A stretch of 64,000 bases of DNA from Eledone cirrhosa (lineage: Eukaryota): positions 36,766,001 to 36,830,000 of the forward strand of contig OZ024747.1 in NCBI GenBank assembly GCA_964016885.1, given 5' to 3'. The position numbers were made by a program, and so were the translations under genes. The notes under the pieces are model-generated. The model worked only from the letters and a program-made list of their open reading frames with translations, searched no databases and was not told the DNA's origin. Shown piece after piece: positions 15,919-29,908 of this stretch (its first letter is position 1; every line of letters begins with the position of its first letter).

Positions 15919-16493
15919 GTCAGGTCACCAGTTGGTGCTACTGGTAACATGTATACCAGTACAACCTGTCCCATGGTCGGCTCGTTGGCGACTAAACTGG
16001 CAACCCCACCGAGGTTTCTTGGTGAGGAGGGTGACTTTGGACATCCTGCAGGACTAAAAACAAAACCTGTCAAATGGCAAAGGAGCTGTTAAGATTCAAT
16101 GGCCATCCAAAATCACCGGGAGAGGTGACCCCTTAACCTTTGTCAAGGCAGAATTCTAGGAGAAGGAAAACTCTGAAATAACACCTGCAACTCTGATGGT
16201 ATCCAATGATGTTGACTTGTTCTTCTTTTTAGTAAATATCATCTTGGTTAAGAGAGTGGGACTGGCTTTGTGCAGTGCCTTTGCTCACTATAAAAGCTTC
16301 ACGGCACAGGCATTGCTTTATATCTGGAGATCTCTCTGCACTTGTCGTCACATGGTACCATGGGCCCAGCACCATGTGTCAATAATTGTCACAAGTGTAG
16401 TGTTTGTACCAGAGTTTTCAAGTCGCTGGCTGGACTAAAATGTCACACTCGTTCAGCGCATCTGTAGGGGTTCTCCTACATGGATATAAAGTA
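15919..16493 (+). mobile_element. Short non-autonomous RTE-derived element, 3' end cut off by the tandem array
   Basis: Near-identical to 35136-35744 and 56517-57123. Has the RTE 5'UTR-like motif CTAGGAGAAGGAAAACTCTGA and the C2H2 remnant [22 protein letters not shown]. Confidence 0.8.
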
Positions 16494-19400
16494 CATACAT
16501 ATATGTGTACAGACGTACAGTAGCATGCATATATTTATATATATACATACAGGTACACATACATATATGCACGTATCAGTTTAGCGGACGCTTATTATAA
16601 CGCCGCCTTGTTCGTTTGTAAACAAATTGAACAGCCTGAATTAATGCCATACGGTGTTAAGGCAACCACGTCACCTTTTTTGTTCAACACTGACACAGGA
16701 ACGATGTACTAGTTTCAAGCTTGTTAGCTATCATAAGCACCGTATACCCTTCTGCCAGATAGTTGAACGTTCGAAAGTATATACTTTCCTTATGAAAATT
16801 AACGGCTGAGCAGCCTAATTTGCATATCGAGTGAGTTGAGTCGGTCAGGCATACCGAAAACGATAAGTTGAAATAAAATGAAAACGAAATTTCATTTCTC
16901 ACTCTTAGTACGGCACTTACTTAAATGTAAGTATGTATGTATACGTACATACATATATGTGTACAGACGTACAGTAGCGTGCATATATATATATATATAT
17001 ATATACATACAGGTACACATACATATATGCACGTATCAGTTTAGCGGACGCTTATTATAACGCCGCCTTGTTCGTTTGTAAACAAATTGAACAGCCTGAA
17101 TTAATGCCTTACGGTGTTAAGGCAACCACGTCACGTTTTTTATTCAACACTGACACAGGAACGATGTACTAGTTTCAAGCTTGTTAGCTATCATCAGCAC
17201 CGTATACCCTTCTGCCAGATAGTTGAACGTTCGAAAGTATATACTTTCCTTATGAAAATTAACGGCTGAGCAGCCTAATTTGCATATCGAGTGAGTTGAG
17301 TCGTTCAGGCATACCGAAAACGATAAGTTGAAATAAAATGAAAACGAAATTTCATTTCTCACTCTTAGTACTGCACTTACTTAAATGTAAGTATGTAAGT
17401 ATACGTACATACATATATGTGTACTGACGTACAGTAGCATGCATATATATATATATATATATATATATATATATATATACATACAGGTATAATCTTAGTA
17501 CGGGACTTACTTAAATGTAAGTATGTATGTATACGTACATACATATATGTGTACAGACGTACAGTAGCATGCATATATATATATATATATATATATATAT
17601 ATATATATATATATATATATATATATATATATATACATACAGGTACACATACATATATGCACGTATCAGTTTAGCGGACGCTTATTGTAACGCCGCCTTG
17701 TTCGTTTGTAAACAAACTGAACAGCCTGCATTAATGCCATACGGTGTTAATGCAACCACGTCACCTTTTTTGTTCAACACTGACACAGGAACGATGTACT
17801 AGTTTCAAGCTTGTTAGCTATCATCAGCACCGTATACCCTTCTGCCAGATAGTTGAACGTTCGAAAGTATATACTTTCCATATGAAAATTAACGTCTGAG
17901 CTGCCTAATTTGAATATCGAGTGAGTTGAGTCGGTCAGGCATACCGAAAACGATAAGTTGAAATGAAATGAAAACGAAATTTCATTTCTCACTCTTAGTA
18001 CGGCACTTACTTAAATGTAAGTATGTATGTATACGTACATACATATATGTGTACAGACGTATAGTAGCATACATATATATATATATATATATATGTATAC
18101 ATACAGGTACACATACATATATGCACGTTTCAGTTTAGCGGACGCTTATTATAACGCCGCCTTGTTCGTTTGTAAACAAACTGAACAGCCTGAATTAATG
18201 CCATACGGTGTTAAGGCAACCACGTCACCCTTTTTGTTCAACACTGACACAGGAACGATGTACTAGTTTCAAGCTTGTTAGCTATCATCAGCACCGTATA
18301 CCCTTCTGCCAGATAGTTGAACGTTCGAAAGTATATACTTTCCATATGAAAATAAACGGCTGAGCAGCCTAATTTGCATATCGAGTGAGTTGAGTCGGTC
18401 AGGCATACCGAAAATGATAAGTTGAAATAAAATGAAAACGAAATTTCATTTCTCCCTCTTAGTACGGCACTTACTTAAATGTAAGTATGTATGTATACGT
18501 ACATACATATATGTGTACAGACGTACAGTAGCATGCATATATATATATATATATATATACATACAGGTACACATACATATATGCACGTATCAGTTTAGCG
18601 GACGCTTATTATAACGCCGCCTTGTTCGTTTGTAAACAAACTGAACAGCCTGAATTAATGCCATACGGTGTTAAGGCAATCACGTCACATTTTTTGTTCA
18701 ACACTGACAAGGGAACGATGTACTAGTTTCAAGCTTGTTAGCTATCATCAGCACCGTATACCCTTCTGCCAGATAGTTGAACGTTCGAAAGTATATACTT
18801 TCCTTATGAAAATTAACGGCTGAGCAGCCTAATTGGCATATCGAGTGAGTTGAGTCGGTCAGGCATACCGAAGACGATAAGTTGAAATAAAATGAAAACG
18901 AAATTTCATTTCTCACTCTTAGTACGGCACTTACTTAAATGTAAGTATGTATGTATACGTACATACATATATGTGTACAGACGTACAGTAGCATGCATAT
19001 ATATATATATATATATATATATATATATATATATATATATATATATATATATTTATATATATACATACAGGTACACATACATATATGCACGTATCAGTTT
19101 AGCGGACGCTTATTATAACGCCGCCTTGTTCGTTTGTAAACATACTGAACAGCCTGAATTGATGCCATGCGGTGTTAAGGCAACCACGTCACCTTTTTTG
19201 TTCAACACTGACACAGGAACGATGTACTAGTTTCCAGCTTGTTAGCTATCATCAGCACCGTATACCCTTCTGCCAGATAGTTGAACGTTCGAAAGTATAT
19301 ACTTTCCTTATGAAAATTAACGGCTGAGCAGCCTAATTTGCATATCGAGTGAGTTGAGTCGGTCAGGCATACCGAAAACGATATGTTGAAATAAAATGAA

Positions 19401-28400: not shown

Positions 28401-29058
28401 TAAAATGAAAACGAAATTTCATTTTTCACCCTTAGTACGGCACTTACTTAAATGTAAGTATGTATGTATACGTACATACATATATGTGTACAGACGTACA
28501 GTAGCATGCATATATATTTATATATATATATATATATATATATATATATATATATATATATATATATATATATATATATATATATATATATACATACAGG
28601 TACACATACATATATGCACGTATCAGTTTAGCGGACGCTTATTATAACGCCGCCTTGTTCGTTTGTAAACAAACTGAACAGCCTGAATTAATGCCATGCG
28701 GTGTTAAGGCAACCACGTCACCTTTTTTGTTCAACACTGACACAGGAACGATGTACTAGTTTCAAGCTTGTTAGCTATCATCAGCACCGTATACCCTTCT
28801 GCCAGATAGTTGAACGTTCGAAAGTATATACTTTCCTTATGAAAATTAACGGCTGAGCAGCCTAATTTGCATATCGAGTGAGTTGAGTCGGTCAGGCATA
28901 CCGAAAACGATATGTTGAAATAAAATGAAAACGAAATTTCATTTCTCACTCTTAGTACGGCACTTTCTTAAATGTAAGTATGTATGTATACGTACATACA
29001 TATATGTGTACAGATGTACAGTAGCATGCATATATATATATATTCATATATATATACA
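16491..29058 (-). repeat. Tandem array of ~450-550 bp units, each with a minimal hammerhead ribozyme and a variable (TA)n tract (retrozyme-like satellite)
   Basis: The hammerhead reverse complement ACGATGTACTAGTTTCAAGCTTGTTAGCTATCATCAGCACCGT starts at ~16701, 17161, 17791, 18255, 18715, 19219, 19688, 20136, 20633, 21100, 21608, 22088, 22592, 23060, 23576, 24096, 24570, 25078, 25618, 26128, 26658, 27204, 27674, 28228 and 28748. Confidence 0.95.
17161..17203 (-). ncRNA. Minimal type I hammerhead ribozyme (representative array copy)
   Basis: ACGGTG-CTGATGA-T-AGCT(AACA)AGCT-T-GAAAC-TA-GTA-CATCGT: 6-bp stem I, intact core, palindromic stem III ACTAGT, GUA triplet. Confidence 0.88.
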
Positions 29059-29908
29059 TATACTTTCGAACGTTCAACTATCTGGCAGAAGGGTATACGG
29101 TGCTGATGATAGCTAAAAAGCTTGAAACTAGTACATCGTTCCTGTGTCAGTGTTGAACAAAAAGGGTGACGTGGTTGCCTTAACACCGTATGGCATTAAT
29201 TCAGGCTCTTTCAGTTTGTTTACAAGCGAACAGGGCGGCGTTATAATAAGCGTCCGCTAAACTGATACGTGCATATATGTATGTGTACCTGTATGTATAT
29301 ATATATATATATATATGCATGCTACTGTACGTATGTACACATATATGTATGTACGTATACATACATACTTACATTTAAGTAAGTGCCGTACTAAGCGTGA
29401 GAAATGAAATTTCGTTTTCATTTTATTTCAACTTATCGTTTTCGGTATGCCTGACCGACTCAACTCACTCGATATGCAAATTAGGCTGCTCAGCCGTTAA
29501 TTTTCATAAGGAAAGTATATACTTTCGAACGTTCAACTATCTGGCAGAAGGGTATACGGTGCTGATGATAGCTAACAAGCTTGAAACTAGTAAATCGTTC
29601 CTGTGTCAGTGTTGAACAAAAAAGGTGATGTGGTTGCCTTAACACCGTATATCATTAATTCCGGCTGTTCAGTTTGTTTACAAACGAACAAGGCGGCGTT
29701 ATAATAAGCGTCCGCTAAACTGATACGTGCATATATGTATGTGTACCTGTATGTATATATATATATATATATGTATATATATATATATACATGCTACTGT
29801 ACGTCTGTACACATATATGTATGTACGTATACATACATACTTACATTTAAGTAAGTGCCGTACTAAGAGTGAGAAATGAAATTTCGTTTTCATTTTATTT
29901 CAACTTAT
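29059..29908 (+). repeat. Inverted ~1.8 units of the same array (hammerheads at 29097-29139 and 29556-29598)
   Basis: Sequence is the reverse complement of the unit. The junction lies in a TA tract. Confidence 0.93.

Follow-up and report, generated by a model that had tools for sequence, protein, structure and literature searches.

A probable non-LTR retrozyme array in Eledone cirrhosa with insertion ends of the Penelope-like type

Layout of the array and its repeat unit

The analysed window (64 kb of the Eledone cirrhosa genome) contains a real tandem array of hammerheads, with 27 copies within 16491-29906. The whole insertion (16491..29906, both strands) is composed of two head-to-head arms of one non-coding hammerhead repeat, with the 3' ends facing outward. 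The long arm (16491..29046, minus strand) carries 25 hammerhead units, each of ~437 bp plus a (TA)n run (~450-550 bp per monomer with (TA)n included), and the short arm (29058..29906, plus strand) carries ~1.8 units that are 5'-truncated, contain two hammerheads (29103 and 29562) and stop at the long fixed 3' end of the family. At the inversion junction (29030..29057), the long arm's internal (TA)n meets a TATATA motif of the short arm at unit position ~82. An earlier note on this DNA had claimed 27 tandem hammerheads in non-coding units on the minus strand; their number and non-coding nature were confirmed, with the array ending at 29906, but the strand applies to 25 copies and not to the two plus copies joined at ~29030-29057. 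The exact CTGATGA-N-GAAAC pattern occurred in 26 copies against 0.15 expected, a count reached by 0/100 shuffles.

The unique parts of the units are separated by spacers of 21-117 bp, with the sole exception of a 193-bp gap holding a partial internal duplication of ~130 bp (17493..17613, minus strand). Array GC content is 33-37%. Only three ORFs of at least 120 aa lie within the array, all of them YI-repeat frames reading through (TA)n, and the ORF listing gave no RT plus GIY-YIG ORF of an autonomous Penelope-like element (PLE) inside it. No two units are identical (maximum pairwise identity 99.5%; mean 97.0% for the 26 full units compared), and five locus-private variants are common to both arms. 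Near the right end, a purine-pyrimidine region with internal (TA)n (29725..29843, plus strand), which forms a long hairpin in the predicted monomer, is directly followed by the short fixed 3' end (unit position ~409-411). From there a PLE-type 'tail' of ~62 nt (29844..29906, plus strand) extends to the long fixed 3' end, at which the (TA)n target microsatellite lies (29907..29952). The left junction (16485..16495) joins the neighbouring repeat via 3-nt microhomology (GTA); the joint lacks ~35 nt of the neighbour along with the neighbour's (AT)n tail, as well as ~19 nt at the short end of the element, presumably through a later deletion.

The predicted ribozyme and a promoter-like element

The predicted ribozyme belongs to the canonical type I hammerheads, and its stems covary. 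In an example of its extended form (17149..17216, minus strand; core 17197-17167), the cut is predicted between 17167 and 17166, which agrees with the cleavage after GUA at 17167 proposed in the earlier note. The cores of the two plus-strand copies (29103..29133 and 29562..29592) have predicted cleavage after 29133 and 29592, respectively, and the second has its first stem I pair broken. Helix I has 6 bp followed by an extension with an internal loop, helix II has 4-5 bp, the basal pair being U.U (U10.1.U11.1), and helix III has 1 bp capped by the palindromic CUAG. Minimal hammerheads are defined by a helix II of 7-8 bp, a helix I of 4-5 bp, an extra nucleotide between 9 and 10.1, and G10.1-C11.1 (PMC4209133). 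The helix lengths, the extension and the U.U pair at 10.1/11.1 do not fit the minimal PLE type, and the label 'minimal' given earlier is wrong by this definition. The accompanying 2-bp stem III does not hold either, because in a monomer 2 bp cannot be closed by a loop of 2 nt. The core had also been called intact: 15/27 copies fully match the 43-nt majority motif, and the description fails for one copy with G5>U (16743) and one with U16.1>A (27716). A third core change, the broken first stem I pair (29556), likewise affects one copy, and the remaining nine changes among the 27 copies lie in stem II or loop 2.

In 14 hammerheads representing four subfamilies, the paired cells amounted to 92.9% (36-48% in slid controls) and two-sided changes occurred in 8/19 pairs, values matched by 0/500 shuffles on three measures. 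Stems I and II show compensatory changes between families that are 63% identical, and variation falls at N7 and loop 2. The Rfam search that had been suggested for this DNA returned no gathering-score match in the 64-kb window; the best hammerhead match was Hammerhead_HH9 (17.6 bits, E 0.053), and an E-value scan of 14000-32000 contained no hammerhead among the 150 of 414 matches listed, which were dominated by miRNA-like matches on (TA)n. Since Rfam misses this ribozyme, such families are probably under-annotated. With regard to activity, the U10.1.U11.1 pair and the 1-bp helix III may weaken it. The computed ACUAGU self-duplex amounts to -4.8 kcal/mol and helix III closure in the monomer costs 5.4 kcal/mol, and when a pair of 71-nt fragments was cofolded, the MFE structure was intermolecular but not the double hammerhead; these modelled energies are compatible with dimer help for cleavage but do not show it. 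One 448-nt monomer folded as a circle was 67% paired (z -6.7, 30 shuffles), largely due to the purine-pyrimidine hairpin.

Each unit also contains a 12-mer identical to an element at -77 to -79 of five host Pol III genes (three U6, U6atac and RNase MRP). The octamer-containing element TATGCAAATTAGG (29473..29485, plus strand), which resembles the -78 element of the host U6, U6atac and RNase MRP genes, is exact in 22/26 array copies (e.g., 17286-17274, minus strand). An upstream TATGCAAATTAG-like element was recovered in the unit at 18.1 bits (18.7-22.3 bits in the host genes), a score matched by 0/300 shuffles and 0/355 genomic chunks. The 12-mer is the longest identical run common to the unit and its 63%-identical sister family. 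A TATA-like motif (29515..29522, plus strand) lies 42 bp past the octamer element; the spacing of 42 bp in family A and 41 bp in family B is ~5 bp shorter than that of the host genes (46-48 bp), and the TATA-like words of both families are weaker than those of the host, so that host-type TATA spacing was not reproduced. Runs of T4-T5 occur inside the unit and would hinder Pol III read-through. A U1/U2-type promoter was considered separately: six U1/U2 upstream regions lacked the element (best 7.4 bits), and a TCAG similarity in family A was rejected because it is not kept in family B. A host Pol III-gene element inside a retrozyme unit was not met in the literature that we searched.

Family size and insertion ends

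The exact 31-nt core had 10,718 genome matches on both strands (control 0), which provides the dispersed copies that the earlier note had proposed to look for. Two disjoint sister patterns gave 14,730 and 11,333 matches (~26,000; controls 0 and 16). The same family includes a 93-unit array elsewhere in the genome, and a 31-unit array also exists; the family-B array (31+1 units) has 99.3% internal identity, and 65/86 cores are intact in the array C4. At many loci both arms hold several units, and an internal (TA)n occurs throughout the family. Among four contig sets, one with the same organism label (X10) contains contigs of this family, and two with other organism labels (X4 and X5) contain a few pieces of ~94% similarity at low depth; none of these served as evidence. 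The sampled loci were the best BLAST matches plus the first matches on one contig and are therefore a non-random set. The window array is ordinary within its own family, one of thousands of insertions, and the earlier impression of an unusual locus is not supported given the 93- and 31-unit arrays and the family-wide (TA)n. The assignment to retrozyme-like hammerhead tandem repeats did hold: the units are non-coding apart from YI-repeat frames, have GC below 50% (33-37%) and no LTR structure, carry a type I hammerhead in each of at least two consecutive complete units, are highly self-paired in the predicted monomer and belong to a dispersed high-copy family (10,718 exact cores). The family is a new addition to the known non-LTR retrozymes. 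Neither it nor any cephalopod retrozyme was found described in the searched literature, a search that lay outside Repbase, Dfam, most subscription papers and supplements; the supplements of bioRxiv preprints or of PMC7229834 could list such a family. For a squid genome, a count of 235 hammerhead_1 matches is reported (PMC6962438).

Two fixed 3' ends, ~62 nt apart, run into (TA)n. Downstream of the anchor, 66 3' ends were scored at which the unit does not continue; (TA/CA)n follows 30 ends of the long and 26 of the short type (56/66), and family B has the same two ends, with 10/12 running into TA. Close strand switches were head to head in 24/25 cases. The 3' ends are fixed and the 5' ends variable, a strand-polar pattern as target-primed reverse transcription predicts; the flanks are (TA)n, in which a TSD is not readable. 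PLE insertions are described as having an inverted 5'-truncated copy, a one-sided tail of 30-40 bp and a microsatellite bias (10.1101/2021.04.23.441226), the tail being the stretch that separates two internal sites of RT initiation (PMC11167929). The one-sided tail, the inverted 5'-truncated copy and the microsatellite or AT-rich target were all found here, and the tails of the array family are longer (60-70 nt). A coding PLE fragment 450 bp from the array is laid out in the same way, its tail being 60 nt long, and the pLTR of this neighbouring PLE resembles the array unit in its hammerhead, two ends and TA target. The suggestion that a PLE mobilised the array gains backing from the insertion footprint; the reading of the ribozyme as the minimal PLE type is not supported. 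We did not meet the two-end, TA-target and inversion footprint on retrozyme copies in the searched literature.

Origin of the array and comparison with known systems

We consider it likely that a single insertion of a non-autonomous retroelement, a member of the non-LTR retrozymes, gave rise to the array, that a PLE RT/GIY-YIG protein acted in trans to mobilise it, and that the copy was then lengthened in place. Transcription of the hammerhead strand, probably from the promoter element of each unit, would continue into the next units, and the multimer would be cut after GUA by the canonical type I hammerhead, presumably best when two copies pair their palindromic ACUAGU. Cleavage would yield monomers of ~450-550 nt, and circularisation may follow; such activity is suggested by the newt, axolotl and mussel retrozymes, and the structure and covariation come from this genome. 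A putative PLE protein would nick (TA)n DNA and begin reverse transcription inside the RNA, using one of a pair of start sites that are separated by ~62 nt and lie some 250-315 nt downstream of the cut. With a multimer or a circle as template, the products would be tandem copies truncated at the 5' end, many of them with an inverted arm, and local unequal exchange or conversion, suggested by shared-variant blocks, would have enlarged the copy to 25+2 units. Points against this scenario are the lack of a homologous pLTR among the GIY-YIG loci examined, the tail length and the ~5-bp difference in promoter spacing. In addition, hammerhead cleavage was dispensable for the insertion of an anole PLE in vitro, with no RNA-seq read ending at the cut (PMC11167929), and 8/9 Xenopus retrozyme dimers were uncleaved in vitro (10.64898/2026.07.22.740005).

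The unit might instead be the pseudo-LTR of an autonomous PLE in this genome, present as solo or tandem pLTRs, with the hammerhead serving the PLE and no role for monomer circles. Xenopus retrozymes do resemble PLE pLTRs (10.64898/2026.07.22.740005), the neighbouring PLE pLTR has a like layout, and an anole PLE used mainly unprocessed RNA as substrate (PMC11167929). Nonetheless, the unit runs into itself and never into a shared coding sequence (22 + 30 + 30 loci), and the PLE hammerheads that we found have other sequences and flanks without the octamer element. In 50 GIY-YIG loci (150 listed, 10,596 candidates), none showed an autonomous PLE whose pLTR is homologous to the unit, and the only copies there were neighbouring insertions (L057, L219 and L220); the PLE ORFs in the window had no pLTR homologous to the unit, and a search for a driver PLE by a negative pattern at the tail junction gave only tandem junctions among the 100 of 520 matches listed. 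We regard the pseudo-LTR origin as unlikely. Spread as an ordinary satellite at the DNA level (eccDNA or Helitron-like), with the hammerhead a relic or chance, would fit the lack of an Rfam call and the mutated cores (65/86 intact in C4) but not the compensatory stem I and II changes across 63%-identical families, the variation at N7 and loop 2 or the strand-polar ends, and appears very improbable. Even less credible is an assembly artefact that inflated a short repeat: the (TA)n runs are long, but all units are distinct (maximum 99.5%) and their variants are structured.

The retrozyme insertion that we favour could also have been born long, if a monomer circle was reverse-transcribed once in rolling-circle mode and growth at the DNA level was slight thereafter. 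The single private haplotype in both arms, the several units on both arms at many loci and the 99.3% identity of the family-B array speak for this. A single monomer template, however, predicts private variants only, and variant blocks are common to unit pairs (u06=u09, u10=u20, u12=u17 and u15=u19). Seven unit pairs have at least 3 substitutions in common (maximum 1 in 2000 star-model simulations), and the family-B array also has shared variants, with a roughly 3-unit period. These patterns largely refute this origin as the sole cause, which we hold to be improbable, and suggest that local DNA duplication contributed at least partly to the growth of the long array. The five-variant haplotype is private to the array locus. 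Of 20 exact matches to a diagnostic 31-mer of the array, 7 lie at 4 other loci; as the full haplotype is absent there, no daughters of the array were recognised among them.

Metazoan non-LTR retrozymes from coral, mussel and axolotl likewise have canonical type I hammerheads in low-GC non-coding tandems, from dimers to tens of units, with thousands of copies and a highly self-paired predicted monomer (PMC7229834). In that study, the U.U at the base of helix II is shared by axolotl HHR_Amex2, and the 1-bp helix III with palindromic tetraloop by HHR_Amex1. Units there span 150-450 bp (450-550 bp here), circles and cleavage were demonstrated whereas our array is known from sequence, and PLEs were proposed as candidates, whereas a tail with two ends, inversions and (TA)n targeting were observed in the present family (PMC7229834). 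Vertebrate non-LTR retrozymes also show tandem hammerheads, PLE co-occurrence and local amplification, and our array falls inside their range (units of 51-972 bp, arrays to 300 units); their PLE case rests on co-occurrence and pLTR homology, and no pLTR homologue was found among the loci examined here (10.64898/2026.07.22.740005). The main text of that report has 0 occurrences each of 'tail', 'promoter' and 'mollus'. EN+ PLEs (Neptune/Nematis, Poseidon) similarly have partial tandems, an inverted 5'-truncated arm, a one-sided tail, an AT-rich or microsatellite target and a hammerhead upstream of the RT starts (10.1101/2021.04.23.441226; PMC11167929). Our array differs from them by having no ORF, a longer tail (~62-70 nt), a canonical rather than minimal hammerhead and many-unit arrays. 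Newt satellite 2 and cave-cricket pDo500 (units of 463-505 bp; PMC2837043) are hammerhead satellites of unrelated sequence. Newt satellite 2 reportedly contains an internal promoter of the snRNA type for Pol II transcription (PMC2220036). This differs from the array element, which matches host Pol III (U6-type) genes and not U1/U2 upstream regions. Newt ovarian monomers may have a 46-47-nt offset, which carried no weight in our analysis.

The conserved host Pol III-gene element offers a testable answer to how such arrays get transcribed. The machinery that moves animal retrozymes has so far been argued from co-occurrence and pLTR similarity, and the insertion ends described here carry the signature of PLEs (a pair of start sites, a tail, an inverted arm and a TA target) in two families that are 63% alike. 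Because the ends reproduce this signature, they supply exact coordinates for a biochemical test. Tentatively, and at somewhat less than even chances, the superfamily of >35,000 units may be self-sufficient save for the RT, having captured a host promoter element, being transcribed, cut, circularised and PLE-integrated, and bringing its own (TA)n. In such a reading, the captured element would sit just upstream of the hammerhead, PLE integration would use the two internal start sites, and the unit's own (TA)n target would aid 5' joining and permit self-insertion. If true, this superfamily would be a natural system for reading and directly testing PLE-driven retrozyme mobilisation.

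The hammerhead array and its growth

The array at 16491-29906 (GC 33-37%) consists of a tandem ~437-bp unit combined with a (TA)n run of variable length. It holds 27 hammerhead copies, 26 of which match the exact core pattern (0.15 expected from shuffling), and an ORF scan found it non-coding, which bears out the earlier note's description of a non-coding tandem array of 27 ribozymes. That note had placed all copies on the minus strand; 25 lie there, but the final two have plus orientation, which makes the array a pair of head-to-head arms meeting at ~29030-29057. The Rfam search that it had proposed, run on the window, did not recognise the ribozyme.

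The units diverge by 1.6% from their majority sequence. Both arms carry five private variants, common to the array's units and absent from a second array on contig C4 and from the other loci checked, and the locus thus has one founder. Seven unit pairs have at least three substitutions in common, where 2000 simulations under a star model gave no more than one such pair, which indicates that DNA-level duplication or conversion shaped the array after insertion.

The hammerhead had also been called minimal. In PMC4209133, canonical metazoan type I motifs have a 6-bp helix I, a 4-bp helix II and a helix III of 1-2 bp whose loop is small and palindromic, and in the min-HHRs that Penelope-like elements (PLEs) carry, helix II is long, helix I is short and position 9 is followed by one additional nucleotide. 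By these criteria, and judging from its sequence, the array's hammerhead is canonical type I and not a PLE min-HHR: helix I is 6 bp, extended via an internal loop, helix II is 4-5 bp with U.U at its base, and helix III is A15.1-U16.1 with a CUAG cap. Over a gap-free alignment of 14 hand-picked copies from four subfamilies, this structure had 92.9% of cells paired (36-48% in slid controls) and two-sided changes in 8/19 pairs, and 0/500 shuffles matched its paired fraction, two-sided cell count or covariation score, a significance that is overstated because the rows are kin and the structure was derived from them. The helix II switches from AGC/GCU to UUG/CAA and AUG/CAU are nevertheless genuine compensatory changes. 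In a set of 96 distinct copies taken from the fetched loci, retrieved with the core itself as query (≤6 mismatches), variation within the core was highest at N7 and loop 2. Of the 27 window copies, 24 retain both the catalytic nucleotides and the first stem I pair.

A dispersed family

The genome-wide search suggested by the earlier note revealed a dispersed family, with the exact 31-nt core present 10,718 times in the 3.0-Gb host genome. Two disjoint relative patterns gave 14,730 and 11,333 further matches (controls: 0 and 16), which include a sister subfamily at 82% identity and a sister retrozyme family, family B, at 63% (whole unit). The window's own family, family A, also forms a 93-unit array (G000:C4:212.912-212.961 Mb; mean identity 96.0%; intact core in 65/86 units scored), and family B a 31+1-unit array (C1:5.738-5.752 Mb). 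Long arrays are therefore not rare. The microsatellite inside the monomer is present as described but is family-wide (17-123 bp in dispersed family A copies; the corresponding run is 8-20 bp in the sister subfamily), so both of the note's grounds for surprise are gone. Family B units are 466-470 bp, with helix II closed by G-C and cleavage predicted after GUU or GUC; they have a two-end footprint and an octamer element in common with family A, and variants in the 31+1 array recur with a roughly 3-unit period.

Insertion footprint and PLE neighbours

Fetched family A loci, a non-random sample of best BLAST matches and first matches on contig C1, have fixed 3' ends and variable 5' ends. Through an anchor near the unit end we tallied 214 distinct passes (arm ends upstream of it excluded), of which 148 run on into the following unit. 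The other 66 terminate: 30 of them at position 472 of the unit, 26 more at ~409-415, both sets into (TA/CA)n, five parsed at the same two ends with another flank (some being parsing slips), and five in the tail between these ends or elsewhere. In a few cases (L013, L014, L023, L029) an arm terminates at the internal (TA)n. Family B has the same two 3' ends, ~70 nt apart. Strand switches within 900 bp were head to head in 24/25 cases.

In a few informally counted cases, junctions or 5' joints fall at TA (L011 ~2031, L013 ~3210; L012, L015, L016, L020, L032). Some junctions run from the long 3' end through (TA)n to a unit resuming at its internal (TA)n, which suggests insertion into the family's own microsatellite; single-arm copies often start at the internal (TA)n or a TATATA motif, which points to TA microhomology in the 5' joints. 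The window array's left end lacks (TA)n and joins a ~600-bp dispersed repeat via 3-nt microhomology, where the repeat lacks its final ~35 nt and the unit's short end ~19 nt; we read this joint as a probable later deletion of the original target. The ~600-bp repeat, which we take to be 'RTE-like', is non-coding and high-copy (15918-16492, 35123-35710, 56505-57088, 56289-56405; copies 92-97% identical), occurs in at least seven fetched loci and runs into (AT)n from a fixed 3' end. Judged by eye, ORF fragments at 42179-46328, 50530-52644, 52683-55945 and 13338-13995 are LINE-like (endonuclease/RT) and mariner-like.

Inverted 5'-truncated copies, a one-sided tail and a microsatellite target liken family A to PLEs, for which 10.1101/2021.04.23.441226 describes these traits. 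In an anole PLE, two internal RT start sites 3' of the hammerhead delimit the tail (PMC11167929). Family A appears to work like a non-autonomous PLE, although the 50 GIY-YIG loci examined (of 150 listed and 10,596 candidates) contained no pLTR (PLE pseudo-LTR) homologous to the unit that would point to its origin or to a driver PLE.

Beside the array, a coding PLE fragment (30354-32049; GIY-YIG ORF 31524-30814, minus) is flanked by (TA)n on both sides, with hammerheads at 30610 (minus) and 31854 (plus; loop-3 variant). It is laid out like the unit, with the hammerhead following the GIY-YIG ORF and an inverted pLTR copy that lacks a 60-nt tail, but sequence similarity is nil; its CX5CXXC motif, considered without a tree, suggests the Neptune/Nematis group. 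Two plus-strand PLE-like RT/GIY-YIG ORF fragments (697 aa, 6954-9047; 302 aa, 11600-12508) gave a single Pfam match, a weak GIY-YIG in the latter, and a descriptor search found no hammerhead near them. Elsewhere, a coding PLE family (L062, L209-L211, L215) has a 3' hammerhead with U.U at the helix II base and a palindromic AGUACU helix III; its architecture is close to that of the ribozyme in the array, with which it has no sequence homology.

A promoter-like element and the standing of the family

The longest identical run between families A and B is the 12-mer TATGCAAATTAG, followed by an 11-mer. Five host genes, all with a TATA box at -31, carry it with ≤1 change at -77 to -79: U6 at three independent loci, one U6atac gene and the only RNase MRP gene identified. 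Neither feature is present in the remaining U6/U6atac matches, which resemble pseudogenes or interrupted copies, and the word was absent from six U1/U2 upstream regions checked. With a matrix from the five host sites (18.7-22.3 bits), the units scored 18.1 and 18.5 bits, reached by 0/300 shuffles per unit and 0/355 genomic chunks. These comparisons argue for a genuine element that has been retained. A plain U6 promoter is disfavoured, since a TATA-like word follows at 42 bp (A) or 41 bp (B) vs 46-48 in host genes, and T4-T5 runs within the units would impede read-through by Pol III. Transcription is predicted to start about 40-60 nt upstream of the predicted cut. There is precedent: according to a citing sentence in PMC2220036, newt satellite 2 has an internal promoter of the snRNA type and the schistosome satellite a Pol III promoter.

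As for the host promoters, on which our literature search found no paper, the Pol III genes (L143-L145, L199, L205) combine TATA at -31 with an octamer-like word at -78, and U1/U2 genes (L155-L184) instead combine a TATA-like word near -30 with TCAGT near -56. Some U6-cluster copies on C19 (L149, L153) carry a ~180-bp insertion between TATA box and gene.

We infer that hammerhead units are transcribed and the transcript cleaved, probably aided by pairing of two palindromic ACUAGU, that monomers circularise, and that a PLE enzyme performs insertion. Fold calculations are compatible with dimer help and go no further. Cleavage was dispensable in vitro for the anole PLE (PMC11167929), and 8/9 Xenopus retrozyme dimers showed none (10.64898/2026.07.22.740005); both results count against an easy inference of these steps.

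Family A has the testable features of non-LTR retrozymes set out in PMC7229834 and 10.64898/2026.07.22.740005, the former of which already records such elements in a mollusc. Our literature search, conducted without repeat databases, most subscription papers or supplements, found no description of family A; in the portions of the retrozyme literature searched (supplements excluded), neither the tail and inversion footprint nor the U6-type element is reported. We thus regard this as a new family of a known class, with two useful and testable additions.
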